Of a stretch of DNA of 64,000 bases, positions 3-55,738 are shown one piece after another. The DNA is from Enterobacteria phage ATK47: sequence record NC_055708.1; one strand, written 5' to 3'. The first letter of the stretch is position 1. Each line of letters opens with the position of its first letter. A program made the translations under genes and the position numbers. The notes under the pieces are model-generated. The model was not told the DNA's origin. It ran no database searches and saw only the letters and a program-made list of their open reading frames with translations.

Positions 3-503
3 TTGGATGTTATTGAATTATTGGAAGAAGCGCTAATTTATTTGCAAAGTCAATATTTACCGATTAATAATGTTAAAGTATTATCATCGTTAGAAGGTGG
101 ATATTCGTATCTAGATATTAAACCATATGAAGCCCTGCGTGAAGCTATAAATAATATCAACGACACATGGTCAATCCGCCGTCTTATGCAAGCCCTCGGT
201 ACGGATGTTGTCGTTAATTTATTTGACCGTATGTATTGGGTTAAACTTTTTGCATTAAACTATATGGATTATATTGGAAGTGATTTCGATTACTATGTTG
301 TGACCGATACACGCCAAGTCCATGAAATGGAAACCGCTAGAGCGATGGGTGCTACAGTTATTCATGTGGTTCGCTCTGGTACGGAATCCACCGATAAACA
401 TATTACAGAAGCTGGGTTGCCTATTGAAGAAGGTGATTTAGTTATTACAAACGACGGCTCTTTAGAAGAGCTTTATTCTAAAATTGAAACAATCTTAAGG
501 TAA
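3..503 (+). CDS. 1: dNMP kinase gp1, 5'-truncated at window edge
   Basis: Translation matches remembered T4 gp1 C-terminal half (WSIRRLMQALGTD, DRMYWVKLFAL, ARAMGATVIHVVR, GDLVITNDGSLEEL). Confidence 0.8.
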   Translation: MDVIELLEEALIYLQSQYLPINNVKVLSSLEGGYSYLDIKPYEALREAINNINDTWSIRRLMQALGTDVVVNLFDRMYWVKLFALNYMDYIGSDFDYYVVTDTRQVHEMETARAMGATVIHVVRSGTESTDKHITEAGLPIEEGDLVITNDGSLEELYSKIETILR

Positions 504-7029: not shown

Positions 7030-7393
7030 GCCCTGGGCGTATGAATACAAGCGTAAATTAATCCCAAATGAAGTACTATTTGGCCCTATTTTAGCTTTAG
7101 CATTTTTAATCTTTATGATTATAGGAGCTGTTTTAGATTCTAGTGAAGTTATATCGTCTGATGCAGCATTTTCATTAATGTTCGTCGCACCACTTATTGT
7201 ACCGTTTTTATTAATGCCTATTAATTGGGCGGGATATTGGCACCAAGGCCGTCATCACAGAGCCCGATTAAGAGAATGGAAAGTTCAGTGCGCAAAAGCC
7301 CAAGCTCAGTATGATGAAGCTGTTAAAAAGTATGAATATGAAGAAGCTATGGAATTCGTTAAGGAAATAAGATGCAAAAGCCTCAACTCTTAA
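7019..7393 (+). CDS. membrane protein, variant C-terminal motif (EFVKEIRC)
   Basis: hydrophobic segments; start uncertain (6998 or 7019). Confidence 0.4.
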   Translation: MPSKPWAYEYKRKLIPNEVLFGPILALAFLIFMIIGAVLDSSEVISSDAAFSLMFVAPLIVPFLLMPINWAGYWHQGRHHRARLREWKVQCAKAQAQYDEAVKKYEYEEAMEFVKEIRCKSLNS

Positions 7394-7731
7394 CCGTATG
7401 GCCTTCTCTTGGTGAGAACATTCTAATTTTTATTATGAGTATTGGCATGGGATTTGCCTTTGGATTAGTTGGATTTCTTATTGACGGCGTTGTGTTAGGA
7501 TTTATAGGGAACACTGGTGGATTCACAGACCAATGGCAGGACTTACGGTATACCCAAGCCTTTGCATCCATCGCATCATTTTGTACTGTAGTCTATTTTT
7601 ACTACGATTTTATAAACCACAACAAGAAAAATAAAAAGGTTTACGCTTCTCAAATGATTAGTTATAATGAACTCCTAGCTAGACGTGAAAATGAAACAAT
7701 CGAAAACTTTATTAAGGAATGTAGAAAATGA
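7372..7731 (+). CDS. membrane protein, C-terminal NFIKECR motif family
   Basis: two TM segments; C-terminus IENFIKECRK. Confidence 0.45.
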   Translation: MQKPQLLTVWPSLGENILIFIMSIGMGFAFGLVGFLIDGVVLGFIGNTGGFTDQWQDLRYTQAFASIASFCTVVYFYYDFINHNKKNKKVYASQMISYNELLARRENETIENFIKECRK

Positions 7732-8033
7732 GTAAGATTATTGAAATTAAAGTACCAGAGTTTAATGATGCCAAATCCGCTTCAGATGCAATTTATAAAC
7801 TTCTGAATCAAGCTGAACGTATCGAAGAAGAAGCAACAAAGATCGCAGACCAATATGCCGTATCATTTTCTGTAGGTGATTATGGTAGTGGTCGTACTTA
7901 TTATCCTAAGGGTGAAATCGTATCCCAGTGGATGAAAGATGAAATTGAAAATAATGGCGGCGATGTTAAGCGTGAAGGTAATGGATACGTTATTACTGAA
8001 GGTGCTTGGGTTTCGTCTTCTGCGTTGTGCTAA
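7728..8033 (+). CDS. small protein, C-terminal GAWVSSSALC (paralog 1 of 3)
   Basis: tandem paralogs share C-terminal motif. Confidence 0.5.
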   Translation: MSKIIEIKVPEFNDAKSASDAIYKLLNQAERIEEEATKIADQYAVSFSVGDYGSGRTYYPKGEIVSQWMKDEIENNGGDVKREGNGYVITEGAWVSSSALC

Positions 8034-8042
8034 GGAATCATT

Positions 8043-8315
8043 ATGTCTAAAGAACAAACCGAACTGGCTGAAGCTGTAGCAAAAATCTATGCAGCTATTG
8101 AGGCTGCCAAAGAAATTGCTGATAAACAAAACACAACATTCGACTTGTATCCAGCTTATGGTATGGGTGGAACCTATCATTCACCAGGACATCTTAAAGC
8201 CGATCTTGAACGTTGTACAAAAAACGGTTATGCCGAATGGGCTGACGTTTACCAATACGACTACAACCTGAGCCTCGAAACTGGTGGTTGGGTCGCATCT
8301 TCTCACACTTGCTAA
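8043..8315 (+). CDS. small protein, C-terminal GGWVASSHTC (paralog 2 of 3)
   Basis: SD AAGGAA; shared motif. Confidence 0.5.
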   Translation: MSKEQTELAEAVAKIYAAIEAAKEIADKQNTTFDLYPAYGMGGTYHSPGHLKADLERCTKNGYAEWADVYQYDYNLSLETGGWVASSHTC

Positions 8316-8852: not shown

Positions 8853-9809
8853 ATGATGTTAGTTATTGGTTCTCGTGCACTTCACTATCACGGTCTTATT
8901 GATTCTAGCGCTATTAAAAATAGTGATTGGGACTTTATTGCGGACCAAGGTTCTTGGAATGTATTCAAAAATCAAATGATGGGTGTATATGTTCACCAAG
9001 ATAACCCTGATGTCCAAGTTTTCAAATGCTTCCATAACGGACGCGAAACTCATTTTGAAGCATACATCGTTCCGGCTATCACTAACGTTCGCGAACTAGT
9101 CGGTGAACTCACTCCTGAAGATTTCACGTCTTCTTATGACCTTTTAAAATACGCCAAGAAAAATTTGACTAAAGACCGTTTGAACGGGTTTTACTGGGCA
9201 ACTCCTGAGATATGTCTTGCAATTAAGATGTCTCATCGTTTCAAGAAAAATAATCCATTCTTTTTAAAGACTATGAACCATATTCAGTATCTTCGTGGTA
9301 AAGGTGTTACACTGAACGATGAACTTACTGAAATTATGCTGAAACGCCAGAAAGAAACCTTGAATTATGCTCACCCAGTTCTTGACACTTCTAAAAGTGC
9401 GTTCTTTAAAGATGACATCTATACATATGACCATGATACTATTCATGAAGCCATTGCACTAACAGACCGTCCAGCGTATACATTTTATATGAAAGATGGT
9501 TCTGAAGTCATGACCTCACGCGAGAAGTTCGAATCATTACCAGAAATGGTCAAATTGGCCGGCGTATACGAAGAATCATGTGTACTAGCGTTAGAACGTT
9601 CTCAGATTCCTAATAACTTTGAAATCCATCCACGTGATAGTTTTATGATGGCCCTTGAAAAGGTCTGCACATCAATCACATCAGGATGGTTCCGTGAGTT
9701 CGCTTGGGAAAATTATAGCAAAGTAGTAAGTATGTACCAAAGCTTAGGACACGACGATTACGTCAAGCGTTTCAAACAAAACTTTCATATGGTAAAACCT
9801 TTCAAATAA
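8853..9809 (+). CDS. hypothetical protein (318 aa)
   Basis: long ORF with SD GAGGAAAA. Confidence 0.55.
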   Translation: MMLVIGSRALHYHGLIDSSAIKNSDWDFIADQGSWNVFKNQMMGVYVHQDNPDVQVFKCFHNGRETHFEAYIVPAITNVRELVGELTPEDFTSSYDLLKYAKKNLTKDRLNGFYWATPEICLAIKMSHRFKKNNPFFLKTMNHIQYLRGKGVTLNDELTEIMLKRQKETLNYAHPVLDTSKSAFFKDDIYTYDHDTIHEAIALTDRPAYTFYMKDGSEVMTSREKFESLPEMVKLAGVYEESCVLALERSQIPNNFEIHPRDSFMMALEKVCTSITSGWFREFAWENYSKVVSMYQSLGHDDYVKRFKQNFHMVKPFK

Positions 9810-9821
9810 TTTCACAAAACA

Positions 9822-9860
9822 GTTTACAAGGTCTGTAGTTGTTGATACTATAGACCTATC
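9822..9860 (+). promoter_or_regulatory. early promoter with palindrome aggtct/agacct
   Basis: GTTTACA, TACTAT. Confidence 0.5.
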
Positions 9861-9889
9861 AAAACAAATGAGTGAATGGAGATATAAAA

Positions 9890-10090
9890 ATGACTACTTT
9901 GAATAAACGTTTCGGTAAAGCTAAACCTGGTTGTGCAGCAGAACGTCGTTATGTTTTCGCTCAGTTAGAAGATGTAGAGTATCAGATTAATCAAGTTCAC
10001 ATTACTGGTATCGAGCCTATGTGTGGCCTTGAAGCTCTTCGTGAAGTTCGTGATGGGTATCGTCGTGACATCGAAGAAATGTCAAAATAA
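9890..10090 (+). CDS. hypothetical protein
   Basis: 66 aa ORF from ATG at 9890. Confidence 0.45.
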   Translation: MTTLNKRFGKAKPGCAAERRYVFAQLEDVEYQINQVHITGIEPMCGLEALREVRDGYRRDIEEMSK

Positions 10091-47913: not shown

Positions 47914-48549
47914 ATGAAAACTACACCAATCACTATCGCTATTGACGCAATCGTAAAACAAGCTTCTTCTTTGGCTACTATGGCCAAAGTAATTAGTCAA
48001 AACCCTGCTCGTTATAATGCTATTCTAGAAACTCTTCGACGCCCAGGACTTAGTAATTATGAAAGCCGAGTAATTATTACAGGTGTTGGTAAGAATGCTA
48101 ATATTGCAACTAAAGCTTCTGAGACATTTGCTTCACTCGGTATCCCAAGTATGTACTTGAACACCGGGCATTATTCTCACGGTGATGCAGGATTCATTGC
48201 GCCTAATGATGTGTTGATTCATATTAGTCGTTCTGGTAAGACTGAAGAAATGATAGGTGTTGCTAAACATCTTCGTATGATTCGTCCTCAGGTTAAACAG
48301 ATTCTGTTACATTGTAACCCTGACATTCCACAAGAATACGAAGCTCTTTTTGATTATACGTTCTGTACCGGTATCGCGGTAGAAGTTGACGAGAACTCTT
48401 TAGCTCCGACAATGTCCACTACATTGTTGTTAGCGCTTATCGATACGTTCGCTATCAACCTTTCGTCTGAACGCGGATTTACCTCTAATGACTTCCTTAA
48501 GTTCCACCCTGGTGGTGCACTAGGTGCCATGTTACGAGGCGAGCAATGA
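47914..48549 (+). CDS. SIS-domain sugar-phosphate isomerase (KdsD/GutQ arabinose-5-phosphate isomerase-like, no CBS domains)
   Basis: ITGVGKNANIATK, HGDAGFI, ISRSGKTEE, LAPTMSTT and FHPGGALG match SIS-domain isomerase motifs. Confidence 0.7.
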   Translation: MKTTPITIAIDAIVKQASSLATMAKVISQNPARYNAILETLRRPGLSNYESRVIITGVGKNANIATKASETFASLGIPSMYLNTGHYSHGDAGFIAPNDVLIHISRSGKTEEMIGVAKHLRMIRPQVKQILLHCNPDIPQEYEALFDYTFCTGIAVEVDENSLAPTMSTTLLLALIDTFAINLSSERGFTSNDFLKFHPGGALGAMLRGEQ

Positions 48550-48730: not shown

Positions 48731-50416
48731 ATGAAAAAAGCTGTTATTCTTGGTGCTGGACTGGCAACTCGTTTGTATCCAATAACGCATCATATTCCTA
48801 AGGTGCTTGTTAACTATAAACAAGACACTATTCTGAGCAATTTGTATACAATTTATTCTGACCTTGGCGCAGATGAAATTATTGTAGTAGTTCATTCAAA
48901 ATTTGCTGAAACTGTTCGAGCTTATTGCGAGCAAGAAGGGTTCAATGCGACTATTCGTACAGTTGATGAAGCGTATGGTTCTGCTTATGCTCTTGCTAAA
49001 TTATACAAAGATTTAGATGGCCATAATGTAATTGTTAACTGGTGTGATATTATTCCTGATTTTGGTTCATGGTCTTGGAATGTTAACGCAATCTATGTTA
49101 AGGGTGATGAATGTCGATATAATTTCGATGGTGAAAATATCACTAACGTAGGTTCAACAGGCGGTAATGTTGTAGGAATTTATCAGTTCAAAGACTGGGA
49201 ATTCTACATGGGTTCTACTGATGAGGAAATTCACGAATACTGCAAAGGACGTGATTTCGTAGAATTCCTTTACGGCAGTGCATTCAATAAATCAGAGCTT
49301 ATGAATCTAATTGATTTAGGTGATATGCCTAAACTTGAAAAAGCTCATGAAGTTCGTGAACTTAATCGTAGTTTTAATGCAGTTGAAATTGGCGAAGAAA
49401 CTGTAACTAAATTCGCGTTAACCGAACAAGGTCGAGCTCTTCAGAAAGATGAGATTTCATGGTATTTGAAAGTGAAATCAGATTCAGTCCCTCAGTTAGT
49501 TTCTGTTAATGAAAATAACTTTGAAATGGAACGTATTAAAGGTAAGCCGGCATTTGAATATATTAAATCCAAATCAAGTCTTGCTCGTCCACAAATTGTT
49601 GATGCAATTTTAGATGCACTGAAATTCAGCACAGACACTTATTTTGTAAGTCCTGAAACTGTTCGCCGTGATTTCACTAAAGAGTTCTATACGAAAGTTA
49701 TTGATCGTTGTGAAAGCATTCAGCCATTGATTGATTCATTTGGTAAAATCACACACGTGAACTACACTAAGATTGGACGTCTGAAGCCAATGTTGAAACA
49801 AGCTTTAGAACATCTTATTCGTTATCATAACCGTTCTCAGGGACAGTACTCTGTTATTCACGGTGATCCGAACTTCAGTAATACTATGATTACTGATAAC
49901 GGCGAAGTCAAGTTTATCGACCCTCGTGGATATTTTGGTGAAACCAAGATTTACGGACCAAAATTGTATGATGAAGCTAAAGTGCTTTATGCTGTTTCAG
50001 GTTATGATGAATTCAACGCTAATCCGACCTGGGGCCAGTTTATTATTGATGAAACAACTTGTAATGTGACTATTAACATCAATCCATTAGTTTACAAATA
50101 TGGAAAGATGAGTTCGTTTAACGAGTATCATCATTTGGCAGTAGCAATTATCTGGATTGCATTAGGTGGTTATTTCAAGAATAATCCACTTAAAGCGGTA
50201 GCCGCATATTATAAAGGTATGGAACTTCTGACTAAGCAATTACGTAACATGGGCCGTGTACTTCAAGATGGCTCTATTAGTTATGACGTAGCAGAACCTG
50301 TAACGGCTACTCTGATTACAAAAAATCCTGGTAAATGGGTACTAACTGATAAAGAAACTGGTGTTTCCTATCGTCCAATCGGTGGCGATATCACTCATCA
50401 ATGGGAACGAATCTAA
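48731..50416 (+). CDS. bifunctional sugar-1-phosphate nucleotidyltransferase (N-terminal) / anomeric sugar kinase (C-terminal)
   Basis: N-terminal AVILGAGLATRL as in LicC/RmlA-type nucleotidyltransferases; C-terminal HGDPNFSNTMI...FIDPRG as in choline/aminoglycoside/AmgK kinases. Confidence 0.7.
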   Translation: MKKAVILGAGLATRLYPITHHIPKVLVNYKQDTILSNLYTIYSDLGADEIIVVVHSKFAETVRAYCEQEGFNATIRTVDEAYGSAYALAKLYKDLDGHNVIVNWCDIIPDFGSWSWNVNAIYVKGDECRYNFDGENITNVGSTGGNVVGIYQFKDWEFYMGSTDEEIHEYCKGRDFVEFLYGSAFNKSELMNLIDLGDMPKLEKAHEVRELNRSFNAVEIGEETVTKFALTEQGRALQKDEISWYLKVKSDSVPQLVSVNENNFEMERIKGKPAFEYIKSKSSLARPQIVDAILDALKFSTDTYFVSPETVRRDFTKEFYTKVIDRCESIQPLIDSFGKITHVNYTKIGRLKPMLKQALEHLIRYHNRSQGQYSVIHGDPNFSNTMITDNGEVKFIDPRGYFGETKIYGPKLYDEAKVLYAVSGYDEFNANPTWGQFIIDETTCNVTININPLVYKYGKMSSFNEYHHLAVAIIWIALGGYFKNNPLKAVAAYYKGMELLTKQLRNMGRVLQDGSISYDVAEPVTATLITKNPGKWVLTDKETGVSYRPIGGDITHQWERI

Positions 50417-50853: not shown

Positions 50854-52023
50854 ATGCAAAAAATGAATACTTTTAAAATCGGAACGAATTTTGATTTAGC
50901 TCTTCTTGATAAAATCGTAGAGCTCAATAAAACTTATCCTAATAGCTTGATAAATGAAGTATACGGCTCTACAAGAGAAATGGCTTTTGTAGCAGCCAGA
51001 CCTGATTTTAGGCTTCCTGACGTTGACAAAAAGATGTTAGAAGACTACGTTAAACGTTGTAACGAATTAGGTATTTGCTTTAACTATACACTCAACACGA
51101 TAAATCCTGGTTCAAAAAGAGAACTAGTTGAGTGGAAGAAGAAAGCTATTCAGGATTATGTTCAGTATCTTTGGTCAATAGGCGTATGGCGTATTACTAT
51201 CGCTAACCCTGTTGTTATGGAAATTGTTCGTGAAGTCAATAAAGACATTGAGATTGAAGTTTCAACAATTCTACATGTTGATGCTGTAACTCAAATCAAA
51301 TACTTGCACGACCAATATAACATCAAAAAAGTCTGTTGCGGAATTCATAAGAACCGTTCAGTTTCTTTCCTGAAGCGTGCAGCAGAGTTTTGCAATAAGA
51401 ACAATATAATATTTGAAGTTCTTGTAAATGAGTTCTGTTCTAATGCTGGTAAAGGGTATACAACACATTGTAGCTATCGTGACTCTTGCTATATTTTCCA
51501 TAGTACTGATGTTACCGCTGATGATGCTAAATCCTTAAATGGATATCCTATGCAGCACTGTATTAAAGCTCGTGATACAGACCCATTTAACTGGCTGAGA
51601 ACTCGTTTTGTTCGTCCTCAAGATTTGAAACTTTATAATGATATTGGTATCACTCAATTCAAAGTTTCAGGACGTACAGGTAGCACAGACTACATTTTGA
51701 AAGTTCTTGAAGCATACGCTTCTGAAAAGTTTGAAGGTAATTTGTTAGAACTGTGGAAGCCTTTAGAGACTATTTTCACTCTTGAAAATGAGACTGAGTT
51801 TTCACATACAGTAAATATTGAAACCTCATTGTTAGACGGTTTTTTAGAAAAAAGGTGGTTCAGACATCCAGATTTCGATTGTGCTAATGAAATCTGCGGG
51901 ACGACGTGTACATATTGTGAAAGATATTATAAACGTCAGTTATCTAAAAATGGGTTATCAGAAAACTCTATATCTATTATTGATATAACTAACTCTGATG
52001 ACGCTTTGAGGTACCCGGAATGA
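50854..52023 (+). CDS. hypothetical protein, Cys-rich C-terminus (candidate sugar-modifying or transferase enzyme)
   Basis: 389 aa ORF inside the island; CANEICGTTCTYC cluster; function not recognisable. Confidence 0.45.
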   Translation: MQKMNTFKIGTNFDLALLDKIVELNKTYPNSLINEVYGSTREMAFVAARPDFRLPDVDKKMLEDYVKRCNELGICFNYTLNTINPGSKRELVEWKKKAIQDYVQYLWSIGVWRITIANPVVMEIVREVNKDIEIEVSTILHVDAVTQIKYLHDQYNIKKVCCGIHKNRSVSFLKRAAEFCNKNNIIFEVLVNEFCSNAGKGYTTHCSYRDSCYIFHSTDVTADDAKSLNGYPMQHCIKARDTDPFNWLRTRFVRPQDLKLYNDIGITQFKVSGRTGSTDYILKVLEAYASEKFEGNLLELWKPLETIFTLENETEFSHTVNIETSLLDGFLEKRWFRHPDFDCANEICGTTCTYCERYYKRQLSKNGLSENSISIIDITNSDDALRYPE

Positions 52024-52259
52024 TTTCTAGAAAAACTTTTAACCACCAACTTAATGAAGAGATTTTGACTATAAAACTGAACACTAACGAACAAATTCTT
52101 AAAAAGGCCCTTATGGGCCTGTTTGAAACCAAAGCGGCTAAAGTGATTAAAGAACCTGTTCAATTGGAATACTACACTGATGCATTCCTTCATAGTGTTC
52201 TTGGAAGTATAGATTCTGAAGCTTTACGTTATATCAACATTGCCAAGAAATTCAAATAA
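52020..52259 (+). CDS. hypothetical protein
   Basis: 79 aa ORF, ATGA overlap. Confidence 0.4.
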   Translation: MISRKTFNHQLNEEILTIKLNTNEQILKKALMGLFETKAAKVIKEPVQLEYYTDAFLHSVLGSIDSEALRYINIAKKFK

Positions 52260-52301: not shown

Positions 52302-53018
52302 ATGGGAAAACATAACACAATGAAATATATCAAAGCCGCAGATTTTCAAGCCGCATTTAAAGCAGTCAATCGTGAAATTTTAGAAAATCCTGAATTCGTA
52401 ACTGATTCTCGTATTGGACGTTGTAATGAAATCGGGTCCATGACAGTAGTTGTTGACAATCCATCATCATTCAAAATGACCGACCCACGTATTAACCGCA
52501 TCTCTTATGAATATGCCGAAGACTTCTGGAAGTTTATGATTTCTGGTGGTACTGATGCAGAAGAAGCGTTTAAGGCATATCCTAATGTCGCTAAATTTAT
52601 TTCTAAACCTAAATCAGACGCTTTGCCGGCGAACTTCAACACTTTCTATGGTCCTCGCATTGCGGCCCAATTACCAGCTCTTCTAAAAGAACTTAAAGAG
52701 AAACCTAACTCTCGAAGAGTTGTGTTCCAAATTCTAGAAAGTTCTGATCAGGCTTTGCTTGATTCGGACGAAACACTTGAATATCCATGTACTGACTCAG
52801 TGACTTATTATATTCGCGATGGTAAGCTTTATACCCACTGTCATATGCGTTCTCAGAACTGTGCTGTTGTTATGCAGTTGGATTTTTATCTCCAAGGAAA
52901 ATTACTTCATTATATCGCTAACGAATGCGGCGTAGAAGTTGGTGATTATACTCATACCATGGTAAGTGCCCATGTGTTTGAACGTGATTTTGATTATGTT
53001 AAAGGATTCCTTGACTAA
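52302..53018 (+). CDS. thymidylate-synthase-family deoxypyrimidylate hydroxymethylase (gp42-like, divergent)
   Basis: KPNSRRVVF, nucleophile motif YPCTDSVTYYIRD, MRSQN...QLDFY align to remembered T4 dCMP hydroxymethylase NPDSRR / MCTNTVQYLIRD / MRSND...RNDY. Confidence 0.7.
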   Translation: MGKHNTMKYIKAADFQAAFKAVNREILENPEFVTDSRIGRCNEIGSMTVVVDNPSSFKMTDPRINRISYEYAEDFWKFMISGGTDAEEAFKAYPNVAKFISKPKSDALPANFNTFYGPRIAAQLPALLKELKEKPNSRRVVFQILESSDQALLDSDETLEYPCTDSVTYYIRDGKLYTHCHMRSQNCAVVMQLDFYLQGKLLHYIANECGVEVGDYTHTMVSAHVFERDFDYVKGFLD

Positions 53019-53917
53019 TGGCTATTTTCCGCGTACCAATCTTGAGTATGCGGTCTTATGAAACTGGACAGTATGCTATCCTTAAGGATGGCAACTTCCA
53101 ACTTCATTTGCACCGTGCTAATCCAGGTGATGTGATTACATATCCACGTAATGCATCTGATATTAAAGAATGTGAACGTCTTTTCCCGGAATTTAAGTTT
53201 GTTCCATTATGGTATAAAGATAACGCGTATAACACTCGTAAATATTTCTGGTCTGAAAATGAATTTGTGGTTGATTCATTAATTGCTTATTATGATTGTG
53301 ATTTTCTAATAACAGATATCACTGGATATGACGGCGCTTTTGATGTAGAATTCAATTTCAATATCACTGCAGACCCTAATAAACCACGTTTTTATATTGA
53401 TGAATTCTTAAAAACCGATATGTTGTCGGTTAATCGTTCACTTCAAACTACTGTGTTGAATGAACGTCAAAAAGAAGTGCTGGTTAACGCCGGTGCAGAT
53501 GGTAATAAGATTATCGTAACGCAGAAAGTTATACGTCCTTCCATCATGCAGCGTCTTGTAGGTGATTTGGCTCCTATTCATGTAGATGGTATTTTTCATC
53601 CATTTCGAATTAGTGATCCGTGTTATCATTTTGAACAAGTGGTTGAATGTGCAATTCAATTAGGTCAACCGCTTTATATAACTGATCCAAATAATAGCTT
53701 TGACAGAAATAAGTATCCTGAAGAAGCGCTGATTCGAATTTTTAAACCAACTAAAACTGAGTACTATCAAATTCTTAAAGGACGTCCGAAGATTCAATAT
53801 TTCGAAAATCCTGAAGAAGTATTCCATCCAGGTCTTGGTGAGTTCATCTACTTTAATGCTTTAATTTCTTCGCCGTATAATATACCTAAATACGAAGATG
53901 TCGTAATCGAGGAATAA
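53018..53917 (+). CDS. hypothetical protein at T4 beta-gt position (candidate DNA glycosyltransferase)
   Basis: 299 aa ORF, position only; no motif recognised. Confidence 0.4.
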   Translation: MAIFRVPILSMRSYETGQYAILKDGNFQLHLHRANPGDVITYPRNASDIKECERLFPEFKFVPLWYKDNAYNTRKYFWSENEFVVDSLIAYYDCDFLITDITGYDGAFDVEFNFNITADPNKPRFYIDEFLKTDMLSVNRSLQTTVLNERQKEVLVNAGADGNKIIVTQKVIRPSIMQRLVGDLAPIHVDGIFHPFRISDPCYHFEQVVECAIQLGQPLYITDPNNSFDRNKYPEEALIRIFKPTKTEYYQILKGRPKIQYFENPEEVFHPGLGEFIYFNALISSPYNIPKYEDVVIEE

Positions 53918-53918
53918 A

Positions 53919-54467
53919 ATGGCTAAAATTATTTTAGTAGATGGCCCAGATAATGCTGGTAAAACAACTTTCATTAATGACATAATGGAAATTAGTGAAA
54001 GATATGTAAAGATTGATTTCCCTAAACGAACAGTTGATGGACGTTTCGATGTTAAGTCTCGAAATGAAGTTGGCTGTTTCGAAACGATGTTGAATTATTT
54101 AGACCCTACTAAGATTTATCTGTTAGACCGTGGATATATTAGTAACTGGGTTTATGGACGTATTCGACAAGATGCGGACTCGGTTCTTGACGTTTATGAA
54201 CAGGACTATGTTCGTCTTTGCCAAAACCATGATGTGTTCACAATTATTTTAACACGTAACGAAATGACTGAAAGTTTTGAAGACGACCTTATTACTTTGT
54301 CTTCATTCGGTTTTAATACAGTCATTTCACATTTTGAAGAGTTTGCAATTCATAACAAAATCCAAACGTATCAATTACTTAATCATGATGGTGCTAACAA
54401 AGTTATAGGATTTAATGCAAGCGAACGTAATTATTTGATTACAGAAATTATCAAATGGGCTCGTTAA
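53919..54467 (+). CDS. thymidylate-kinase-like P-loop nucleotide kinase
   Basis: P-loop VDGPDNAGKTT and LDRGYISNWVYG (DRY-type motif) resemble dTMP kinase family. Confidence 0.55.
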   Translation: MAKIILVDGPDNAGKTTFINDIMEISERYVKIDFPKRTVDGRFDVKSRNEVGCFETMLNYLDPTKIYLLDRGYISNWVYGRIRQDADSVLDVYEQDYVRLCQNHDVFTIILTRNEMTESFEDDLITLSSFGFNTVISHFEEFAIHNKIQTYQLLNHDGANKVIGFNASERNYLITEIIKWAR

Positions 54468-54565: not shown

Positions 54566-55738
54566 ATGTCTGATTTAAAATCTCGTCTGATTAAAGCTTC
54601 TACTTCTAAAATGACTGCCGACTTGACCAAGTCTAAGCTCTTTAATAATCGTGATGAAGTCCCTACTCGTATTCCGATGTTGAATATTGCACTAGGTGGT
54701 GCTCTGAATGCAGGATTGCAATCAGGCTTGACTATTTTTGCTGCACCTTCTAAACACTTTAAAACATTGTTTGGGCTGACTATGGTTGCAGCGTATATGA
54801 AGAAATATAAAGATGCAATCTGTTTGTTTTATGACTCGGAATTTGGTGCTTCAGAATCTTATTTTCGTTCAATGGGTGTTGATTTAGACCGTGTAGTTCA
54901 CACACCAATTCAGTCCGTCGAACAACTTAAAGTTGATATGACTAATCAGCTTGACGCTATTGAACGCGGTGATAAAGTTATTATCTTTATCGATTCAATC
55001 GGTAATACTGCATCTAAGAAAGAAACCGAAGATGCATTGAACGAGAAAGTTGTAGGTGATATGTCTCGTGCTAAGGCACTTAAATCTCTGTTCCGTATTG
55101 TGACTCCTTATCTGACTATTAAAGATATTCCGTGTGTTGCAATCAACCATACAGCAATGGAAATCGGCGGACTATATCCTAAAGAGATTATGGGCGGTGG
55201 TACAGGTATTCTTTACTCTGCTAACACTGTATTCTTTATCTCTAAACGTCAGGTTAAAGAAGGTACAGAATTGACAGGTTATGACTTCACGTTGAAAGCA
55301 GAAAAATCTCGTACTGTTAAAGAAAAATCTACTTTCCCGATCACGGTTAATTTTGATGGCGGTATTGATCCATTCAGTGGCTTGTTAGAAATGGCAACTG
55401 AAATTGGATTTGTTGTTAAGCCTAAAGCTGGTTGGTATGCTCGTGAATTCCTTGACGAAGAAACAGGCGAAATGATTCGTGAAGAAAAATCATGGCGTGC
55501 TAAAGCTACTGATTGTGTAGAATTCTGGGGGCCGTTGTTTAAACACAAACCTTTCCGAGATGCAATTGAAACTAAATATAAACTAGGTGCTATCTCTTCT
55601 ATTAAAGAAGTTGATGACGCTGTTAACGACCTTATTAATTGCAAAGCAACAACTAAAGTTCCGGTTAAAGCTTCTGATGCTCCGTCTGCAGCAGATATAG
55701 AAAACGACCTTGACGAAATGGAAGATTTCGATGAATAA
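54566..55738 (+). CDS. uvsX: recombinase UvsX (RecA-like)
   Basis: 390 aa; MSDLKSRLIKAS...; Walker A FAAPSKHFKT; near-identical to remembered T4 UvsX. Confidence 0.95.
   Translation: MSDLKSRLIKASTSKMTADLTKSKLFNNRDEVPTRIPMLNIALGGALNAGLQSGLTIFAAPSKHFKTLFGLTMVAAYMKKYKDAICLFYDSEFGASESYFRSMGVDLDRVVHTPIQSVEQLKVDMTNQLDAIERGDKVIIFIDSIGNTASKKETEDALNEKVVGDMSRAKALKSLFRIVTPYLTIKDIPCVAINHTAMEIGGLYPKEIMGGGTGILYSANTVFFISKRQVKEGTELTGYDFTLKAEKSRTVKEKSTFPITVNFDGGIDPFSGLLEMATEIGFVVKPKAGWYAREFLDEETGEMIREEKSWRAKATDCVEFWGPLFKHKPFRDAIETKYKLGAISSIKEVDDAVNDLINCKATTKVPVKASDAPSAADIENDLDEMEDFDE

Follow-up and report, generated by a model that had tools for sequence, protein, structure and literature searches.

In this study, we analyzed a stretch of 64,000 nucleotides from Enterobacteria phage ATK47 (NC_055708.1; "the window" below) and concluded that the gene at positions 53919 to 54467 encodes a divergent deoxynucleoside monophosphate (dNMP) kinase with the thymidylate kinase (TMK) fold, in which the base pocket and the lid are probably remodeled. 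The gene is the terminal gene of the arabinosyl-5-hydroxycytosine island, rather than a gene lying after the island, where a sequence-only reading of the window had put it. We infer the substrate from the fold, the catalytic and deoxyribose/phosphate motifs, the cluster membership and the co-occurrence, all of which were observed here, and consider it the most likely reading, at about even odds, that the kinase phosphorylates a modified dCMP (5-hydroxy-dCMP) of the cytosine-replacement pathway. The gene and its ribosome-binding site are located as follows.

53919..54467, + strand: TMK-fold nucleotide kinase gene, 182 aa, ATG to TAA; orthologue of RB69 gp45 (RB69p045, NP_861735.1)
53909..53913, + strand: ribosome-binding site GAGGA of the kinase gene, 5 nt before the ATG, read from the sequence

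The open reading frame (ORF) had been recognized at these positions by the sequence-only reading, and it was confirmed on the + strand with 182 aa and with the motifs GPDNAGKTT and LDRGY where they had been placed. A single nucleotide separates the ATG from the stop codon (53915-53917) of the 299-aa transferase gene, and no intrinsic terminator was found in a scan 3' of the kinase gene. The kinase was matched by tblastn in 342 phage records, with at least 80% of the query covered in all but one, and 38 positions are invariant across 18 homologues that are 42-72% identical to the window protein. Given this near-full coverage in so many records and these invariant residues, the gene is genuine and not a chance ORF. 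The protein is acidic (pI 4.99, net charge -8), is identical to RB69 gp45 at 180 of 182 positions (99%) and falls in phrog_761 'thymidylate kinase' (PHROGs, E=2.4e-45); 'thymidylate kinase' is also its RefSeq product name and the name used in several GenBank records. Between 50800 and 54600, the window matches ATK48 (KT184310.1), an Enterobacteria phage of the genus Mosigvirus in the RB69 group, at 100% identity.

Both the gene and its place in the cluster have already been published, as RB69 gp45, a putative 'nucleotide kinase'. Table 1 of Lee et al. (NAR 2026; PMC13326640) gives this name, from fold matches only, to RB69 gp45, DLP3 gp78 and Rhizobium phage RL38J1 gp214; the window kinase is the same gene in a sister phage, with no substantive difference. 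In the literature examined, we found no biochemical test or substrate of the kinase; it is not mentioned in Thomas 2018 or in the Thanatos and CMoRE papers, and essentiality data for LC53 or Bas46 are absent from a transposon-mutagenesis preprint.

The island is located downstream of the DNA polymerase gene, and its gene order, from the isomerase to the kinase and on to uvsX, is identical to that of RB69 genes 55 to 44.

47914..48549, + strand: arabinose-5-phosphate isomerase, RB69 gp55 orthologue (Pfam SIS, E=4.1e-10; GenBank annotation)
48731..50416, + strand: bifunctional nucleotidyltransferase / sugar-phosphate kinase, 561 aa, RB69 gp52:53 / HY126 AfhE orthologue (Pfam NTP_transferase, E=3.7e-9; PMC13326640)
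50401..50802, + strand: HAD-like phosphatase, RB69 gp51 / HY126 AfhF orthologue (from position and synteny; role from PMC13326640)
50854..52023, + strand: Peptidase-U32-family protein, RB69 gp50 orthologue (Pfam Peptidase_U32, E=7.4e-11; weak NCBIfam UbiU, E=9e-4)
52020..52259, + strand: 79-aa ORF, RB69 gp49 orthologue (phrog_8601)
52302..53018, + strand: 5-hydroxy-dCMP synthase (flavin-dependent thymidylate-synthase homologue), RB69 gp48 orthologue (Pfam Thymidylat_synt, E=2.4e-15)
53018..53917, + strand: first arabinosyltransferase, GT-B fold, 299 aa, RB69 gp46:47 orthologue (phrog_3891, E=6e-156; PMC13326640 Table 1)
54566..55738, strand not given: uvsX, the gene after the kinase

In RB69 and Acinetobacter phage DLP3, the base found in place of cytosine is 5-hydroxycytosine bearing one to three arabinoses, and not hydroxymethylcytosine, and RB69 gp48 is a flavin-dependent 5-hydroxy-dCMP synthase, with activity shown, that is marked by D169N (PMC13326640). 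The synthase of the window carries the signature ...HMRSQNCAVVMQLD..., which corresponds to D169N and N177D (E. coli ThyA numbering). The first arabinosyltransferase is acidic (pI 5.12, net charge -11). The 561-aa AfhE-like gene has no CDS in the GenBank record of ATK48. No Pfam match was obtained for the HAD-like phosphatase, and no Pfam, NCBIfam or PDB match for the 79-aa ORF; the ORF at the same position in one related locus (L004) is a chorismate mutase, but the two have no similarity, and this identity was not supported for the 79-aa ORF.

Searched alone, the kinase sequence reached no curated family in Pfam, NCBIfam or the PDB, with matches at the level of P-loop noise only. Pfam gave AAA_14 (E=0.04), PF02223 gave no match at E<=1, and so lay below the curated family threshold, and NCBIfam TIGR00041 (dTMP kinase) scored 16 bits, under its cut-off of 83. 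The TMK-fold assignment was made by profile and fold comparison, not from a single sequence. A profile of close homologues gave weak TMK matches; the RecA concatemers ranked above the TMKs in that search were rejected as artefacts of repeated P-loops. An exhaustive profile search over 1.84 billion cluster representatives (E<=1e-3) retrieved only 315 relatives, which defines a small family, and the signature G-x-D-x-x-GK-[ST]-[ST] plus [LIVM]-D-R-x-x-x-S-[NDE]-x-x-Y is found throughout a list of 176 family proteins. The profile of 93 diverse members matched SPbeta YorR end to end (E=9e-21), and it also matched true thymidylate kinase structures end to end (1e-15 to 1e-13). Pfam PF02223 was matched at E<1e-3 by 58 of these 93 relatives, and the predicted link of the window protein to this family is transitive only, running through them. 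In the fold search, the closest matches of the kinase were thymidylate kinases, with which it shares the three-dimensional fold. These profile and fold comparisons support the earlier proposal of a TMK-like P-loop kinase distinct from gene 1. That proposal was to fall if an HMM search placed the protein in an unrelated P-loop family such as gluconate or shikimate kinase, and no family of that type appeared in the Pfam, NCBIfam, family-profile or fold searches.

Four segments of the protein correspond to the active-site elements of TMKs.

53943..53969, + strand: P-loop / Walker A G9-P-D11-N-A-G14-K15-T16-T17, with the TMK-type acidic residue D11
54018..54029, + strand: F34-P35-K36-R37, counterpart of the TMK 'FPR(Y)' acceptor-phosphate loop (hhalign; role inferred from TMK structures)
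54123..54155, + strand: L69-D70-R71-G-Y-I-S75-N76-W-V-Y79, the TMK 'DRxxxSNxxY' motif (catalytic Arg, sugar/base contacts; hhalign)
54276..54293, + strand: F120-E-D122-D123-L-I125, an acidic motif where TMKs have a basic lid (HMMER alignment to Aquifex TMK)

Residues G9, D11, G14, K15 and T16 of the P-loop are invariant among the 18 homologues; across the 93 diverse members, G9, G14 and K15 never vary, and conservation of D11 reaches at least 90%. F34, P35 and K36 are likewise invariant among the 18 homologues. In the third motif, which includes LDRGY (residues 69-73, nt 54123-54137), R71 is invariant in the 93 members, at least 90% of which keep D70 and Y79, and S75 is invariant in a 12-sequence alignment. 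With hhalign, D11 pairs with Asp9 of M. tuberculosis TMK, F34-P35-K36-R37 with F36-P37-R38-Y39, and D70-R71..S75-N76..Y79 with D94-R95-Y-V-A-S99-N100-A-A-Y103; the M. tuberculosis sequence used was checked against published residue numbers. In TMK structures, these residues contact the free 3'-OH (Asp9), both the acceptor and the transferred phosphate, and the deoxyribose. The conserved apparatus is thus predicted to suit a free deoxynucleoside monophosphate and not a base in a polymer.

The base-recognition and lid regions differ from those of TMKs. The TMK segment bearing the thymine-stacking Phe70 and the O4-binding Arg74 is gapped or inconsistent across two hhalign alignments that disagree with each other, and this unaligned segment would fit an altered base specificity. 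The P-loop position that holds the arginine of type I TMKs is N12 in the kinase. At the lid, placed with moderate reliability by the HMMER alignment, Asp122-Asp123 replaces the lid arginines, and F120, D122, D123, L124 and I125 are invariant among the 18 homologues. The FEDDLI motif is present in kinases that adjoin the arabinosyltransferase or are fused to a glycosylase, and absent from the remote relatives on two non-T4 contigs, L017 and L018.

The distribution of the gene ties it to its two upstream neighbors. Alongside the 342 kinase records, tblastn found the synthase in 376 and the transferase in 347, in the same genera and in nearly equal numbers: the counts for kinase, synthase and transferase are 177/177/177 in Escherichia, 57/57/57 in Acinetobacter, 25/26/26 in Klebsiella and 15/15/15 in Shigella phages. 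The synthase surplus is largely due to 22 Rhizobium records, whose kinase has diverged too far to be picked up by tblastn. The synthase with its D169N signature, the transferase and the kinase are contiguous in all examined Straboviridae loci with enough upstream flank except one (L013), and also in Shewanella phage Thanatos-2, in one Pootjesviridae phage and in metagenome contigs whose kinase is only ~30% identical. In Dhakavirus, the order is permuted, with the kinase ahead of the synthase and the transferase, and stop codons overlap start codons; overlapping or abutting stops and starts of the three genes recur in relatives. The syntenic T4 locus reads 43-imm-42-beta-gt-segA-uvsX and has no kinase gene. 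Tenacibaculum phage PTm5 has a D169N synthase with no kinase homologue within 6 kb. On L017 and L018, the remote relatives directly adjoin a MazG-type NTP pyrophosphohydrolase, and a dCMP-specific hydroxymethylase-type thymidylate-synthase homologue that keeps D169 is found two genes away. Pootjesviridae phage P10VF carries, beside its TMK-like kinase, an annotated 'putative deoxynucleotide monophosphate kinase', for which no Pfam match was found.

Considering the above results, we have proposed a plausible route for the modified nucleotide. A phage dCTPase would supply dCMP, which the thymidylate-synthase homologue two genes upstream of the kinase would hydroxylate to 5-hydroxy-dCMP; the kinase would then move the gamma-phosphate of ATP onto the 5'-phosphate of 5-hydroxy-dCMP, and the diphosphate would be converted to the triphosphate by the host nucleoside-diphosphate kinase and incorporated by the phage polymerase. 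The sequence-only reading had offered three kinds of substrate, a modified dNMP, a sugar or DNA. The first is favored because the residues for the 3'-OH, the phosphate and the deoxyribose are conserved, the protein is acidic and its remote relatives occur in dCTPase and dCMP-hydroxymethylase modules; sugar and DNA are disfavored, as set out below. Its particular candidates, hm-dCMP and hm-dUMP, are wrong for this phage group, in which the base is 5-hydroxycytosine (PMC13326640).

The phage carries two unrelated nucleotide-kinase-like genes, of which the other is located as follows.

3..503, + strand: T4 gp1-type dNMP kinase, C-terminal 166 aa (Pfam DNMK PF21448, E=6e-64, profile positions 77-232 of 232)

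Gene 1 had been correctly named at the start of the window, whose edge cuts it. The window kinase was rejected as a gp1-type enzyme, as it has no match to DNMK PF21448, the profile on which the gp1 fragment scores so strongly. The gp1 homologue of RB69, gp159, converts 5-hydroxy-dCMP to its diphosphate, and gp48 and gp159 suffice to place 5-hydroxy-dC in the DNA of E. coli (PMC13326640), so a second kinase is not obviously needed. That gp1 does the same job in vitro and in E. coli is the main weakness of the assignment to modified dCMP. Also counted against it were the second annotated kinase of P10VF, the sub-threshold TMK scores, the Asp-Asp lid and the lack of a kinase in PTm5. If 5-hydroxy-dCMP is the substrate, the window kinase would act alongside the gp1-type kinase and partly duplicate its job. 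It probably came with the synthase-transferase cassette, which stands where T4 has genes 42 and beta-gt, and may represent a cassette-borne gp1 equivalent that was kept after the cassette replaced 42 and beta-gt.

A second kinase beside gp1 would be explained if the first transferase arabinosylated free 5-hydroxy-dCMP and the kinase converted the resulting 5-(arabinosyloxy)-dCMP, which the gp1-type enzyme may refuse, to the diphosphate. The first sugar would then enter DNA via the polymerase as a glycosylated dCTP analogue, and further arabinoses would be added on the DNA. We regard this as rather unlikely. Several observations speak for it. Single transferases with UDP-arabinose showed no activity on 5-hydroxycytosine DNA, and the published experiments cannot separate a first arabinosylation on the mononucleotide from one after replication (PMC13326640). 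The kinase gene directly follows that of the transferase, and the two proteins have closely matching distributions in the phage database. Transferase homologues from all lineages examined are strongly acidic, with pI 4.7-5.6 and a net charge of -9 to -19, whereas the DNA-acting T4 beta-glucosyltransferase has pI 9.05 and net charge +6; surface charge is, however, weak evidence. The acidic FEDDLI is shared without variation by the kinases that accompany a transferase and is missing from remote relatives that have none, but the glycosylase-fused relatives share it as well, and in the only one of these with an upstream flank (L019), no transferase was present in the flank retrieved. Phage Thanatos comes close to a lethal defect when it loses the sugar-activating enzyme. 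On the other hand, a Bas46 arabinosyltransferase deletion is viable, although the citing paper does not specify which transferase was deleted. In addition, 5-hydroxy-dCTP can be made and incorporated without a sugar, and the later arabinoses are added on DNA (PMC13326640). If it were true, this would be a route to glycosylated DNA that is not known from T-even-type phages, where sugars come after replication.

An ordinary dTMP kinase that raises the dTTP supply during infection would agree with the RefSeq name, with thymidylate kinases as the closest fold and profile matches and with the match of DRxxxSNxxY to M. tuberculosis TMK, and yet we hold it to be quite unlikely. The gene is confined to phages that have the 5-hydroxy-dCMP synthase and the transferase and is missing from the T4 locus, and a general role in dTTP supply is disfavored because it would not predict this confined distribution. 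The thymine-recognition segment appears unconserved, and the protein scores below the Pfam and NCBIfam dTMP-kinase thresholds. Moreover, T4 gp1-type kinases and the host TMK already handle dTMP.

It is very unlikely that the protein is not primarily a kinase, and instead binds nucleotides while assisting or regulating the transferase or synthase, or acts on a by-product such as 5-hydroxy-dUMP from deamination. The atypical, acidic lid and the translational coupling with the transferase are in line with such a role, and relatives that carry a fused glycosylase for deaminated pyrimidines hint at deamination products, but neither the Walker A lysine nor the DR arginine varies within the family, as expected of an active phosphotransferase, and nothing points to a specific alternative.

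The least probable of the roles considered, and one with only a slim chance, is action on a polymer or a sugar, that is, on the 5-hydroxyl of 5-hydroxycytosine in DNA or on an arabinose intermediate. Phage P-loop kinases that act on DNA bases do exist (PMC5889632, PMC8989533), some relatives of the window kinase are fused to a helix-hairpin-helix DNA glycosylase domain, and the first arabinosylation step has so far not been reconstituted (PMC13326640). For comparison we used the validated 5-hmdU DNA kinases PaMx11 gp49, identified as 5-HMUDK (PMC8989533), and M6 gp54. Kinship was rejected, since the hhalign match to the window family covers only 36 P-loop columns and PaMx11 gp49 belongs to another PHROG, phrog_800 (E=5e-30), with phrog_761 at only E=3e-4. 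The domain joined to these relatives is a mismatch glycosylase of the MBD4 type (E about 1e-19); no amino-acid:DNA transferase structure was among its matches, and neither the cluster itself nor any related locus examined showed amino-acid:DNA transferase (aGPT-Pplase) genes. A parallel with the kinase-Pplase fusion of SP10 was accordingly rejected, the partner being MBD4-like. A mononucleotide is favored by the acceptor-phosphate loop and by the conserved Asp that would contact a free 3'-OH, and the protein is acidic. The final base takes its ether oxygen from 5-hydroxycytosine (PMC13326640), so a phosphate leaving group would have no obvious role. For the sugar, arabinose-5-phosphate kinase activity is credited to HY126 AfhE (PMC13326640), a homologue of which is encoded in the cluster.

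The substrate of the kinase would settle whether the first arabinose joins the nucleotide or the DNA, a step that Lee et al. leave undecided (PMC13326640), and it bears on why a second kinase is retained with the synthase and the first arabinosyltransferase though the gp1-type enzyme already accepts 5-hydroxy-dCMP. The kinase would also be a tool for the synthesis of 5-hydroxy- or glycosyl-dCTP analogues. A merely redundant 5-hydroxy-dCMP kinase would be an ordinary finding.

Several known systems can be compared with the window kinase. T4 gp1 (RB69 gp159) probably carries out the same step, from modified dCMP to the diphosphate, but the two are unrelated beyond the P-loop, and the activity of RB69 gp159 on 5-hydroxy-dCMP is demonstrated, whereas that of the window kinase is putative. 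In the hydroxymethyl-dCTP pathway, T4 gp1 fills the slot that the remote relatives hold on L017 and L018. The TMKs (PF02223; vaccinia A48R 2v54, M. tuberculosis 1g3u, Aquifex 2pbr) share the fold, the P-loop with an acidic residue, the FP(K/R) loop and the DRxxxSNxxY motif with the window kinase, which is only 9-19% identical to them, is ~25 residues shorter around the base-binding helix, has no alignable counterpart of their Phe/Arg thymine-recognition pair and carries an acidic lid in place of their basic one.

We know of no link between YorR of the Bacillus prophage SPbeta and cytosine modification. Its structures (PDB 2axp / 3kb2) are titled uncharacterized or hypothetical protein. The 5-hmdU DNA kinases resemble the window kinase as phage P-loop kinases encoded beside a thymidylate-synthase homologue in a base-hypermodification cluster, and some members of each family are fused to a helix-hairpin-helix domain. 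They differ in that the 5-hmdU DNA kinase is basic (pI 8.3) and falls in phrog 800, whereas the window kinase is acidic and falls in phrog 761, and in that the fusion partner in the window family is an MBD4-type glycosylase and not an amino-acid:DNA transferase.

Near the synthase gene lies a gene whose family bears on how the modified base could be made:

window 50854-52023, U32-family protein, second gene upstream from the 5-hydroxy-dCMP synthase
window 52020-52259, 79-aa ORF in the interval from the U32 gene to the synthase
L004:4162-4401, chorismate mutase in a relative (PF01817, E = 1.1e-10)

The RNA 5-hydroxypyrimidine enzymes RlhA and TrhP are members of the U32 family, which also includes the O2-independent hydroxylases UbiU/V. 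In L004 the 79-aa ORF that separates the U32 and synthase genes is the chorismate mutase, and for phages of Enterobacter and Klebsiella, GenBank records also carry a "chorismate mutase" annotation at this position; no chorismate mutase similarity was found for the 79-aa ORF of the window itself. The U32 gene near the synthase, together with the chorismate mutase found there in relatives, suggests that 5-hydroxycytosine could also be made by a prephenate-dependent, oxygen-independent route, as a backup to the O2/flavin enzyme.

Relatives of the kinase from metagenomes were found with a fused C-terminal helix-hairpin-helix mismatch glycosylase domain of the MBD4 type (profile against PDB MBD4, E about 1e-19), and two other contexts of the synthase were examined:

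L019:6001-7074 and L020:127-1092, kinase-glycosylase fusion ORFs
L019:4616-10144, cluster in an unrelated contig
L026, AP019525.1 117309-129959, locus of Tenacibaculum phage PTm5

Eight fusion proteins were compared (P0059, P0060, P0064, P0067, P0069, P0074, P0076 and P0120), and by inspection, the presumed catalytic Asp of the MBD4-type domain was kept in all but one. The fused domain might serve to excise modified cytosines that have been deaminated, for example 5-hydroxyuracil paired with G. The L019 cluster runs from a D169N-type synthase ("MRSNN") through the fusion, an FMN reductase (PF03358) and a SIS isomerase to an AfhE-like protein; its flavin reductase fits flavin-dependent hydroxylation chemistry, and no transferase homologue was found within the stretch fetched. 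In PTm5, a "guanylyltransferase" and a "histidine phosphatase" adjoin a synthase of the same type and motif, and homologues of the kinase and of the first arabinosyltransferase were both absent within 6 kb of it. The locus may encode another sugar pathway that starts from 5-hydroxycytosine.

Several records are incomplete, mislabelled or apparently interrupted at the following genes:

window 48731-50416 (KT184310.1 about 73235-74920), 561-aa nucleotidyltransferase/kinase
window 53018-53917 (KT184310.1 about 77522-78421), 299-aa transferase
L023:14218-14787, PaMx11 gp49, an experimentally validated 5-hmdU DNA kinase
L010:7339-9917, uvsX region of a Yersinia-phage-like contig

The first two lack a CDS in the ATK48 GenBank record, with both ORFs intact, and each is in two pieces in the RB69 RefSeq record, a split that PMC13326640 ascribes to sequencing errors. 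PaMx11 gp49 is labelled "terminase small subunit" in RefSeq and PHROGs (phrog_800), which is a propagated misannotation. The uvsX match in L010 is in two parts (7339-8265 and 9270-9917) with about 1 kb between them, which suggests that something has inserted into uvsX, for example an intron or a homing endonuclease.

The 299-aa transferase, the first arabinosyltransferase of the cluster, and its homologues (L014, L024, L025, L027, L029 and L030) were strongly acidic in all lineages examined, with a pI of 4.7-5.6 and a net charge of -9 to -19. This acidity is out of the ordinary in an enzyme presumed to work on double-stranded DNA; in contrast, T4 beta-glucosyltransferase has a pI of 9.05 and a net charge of +6.
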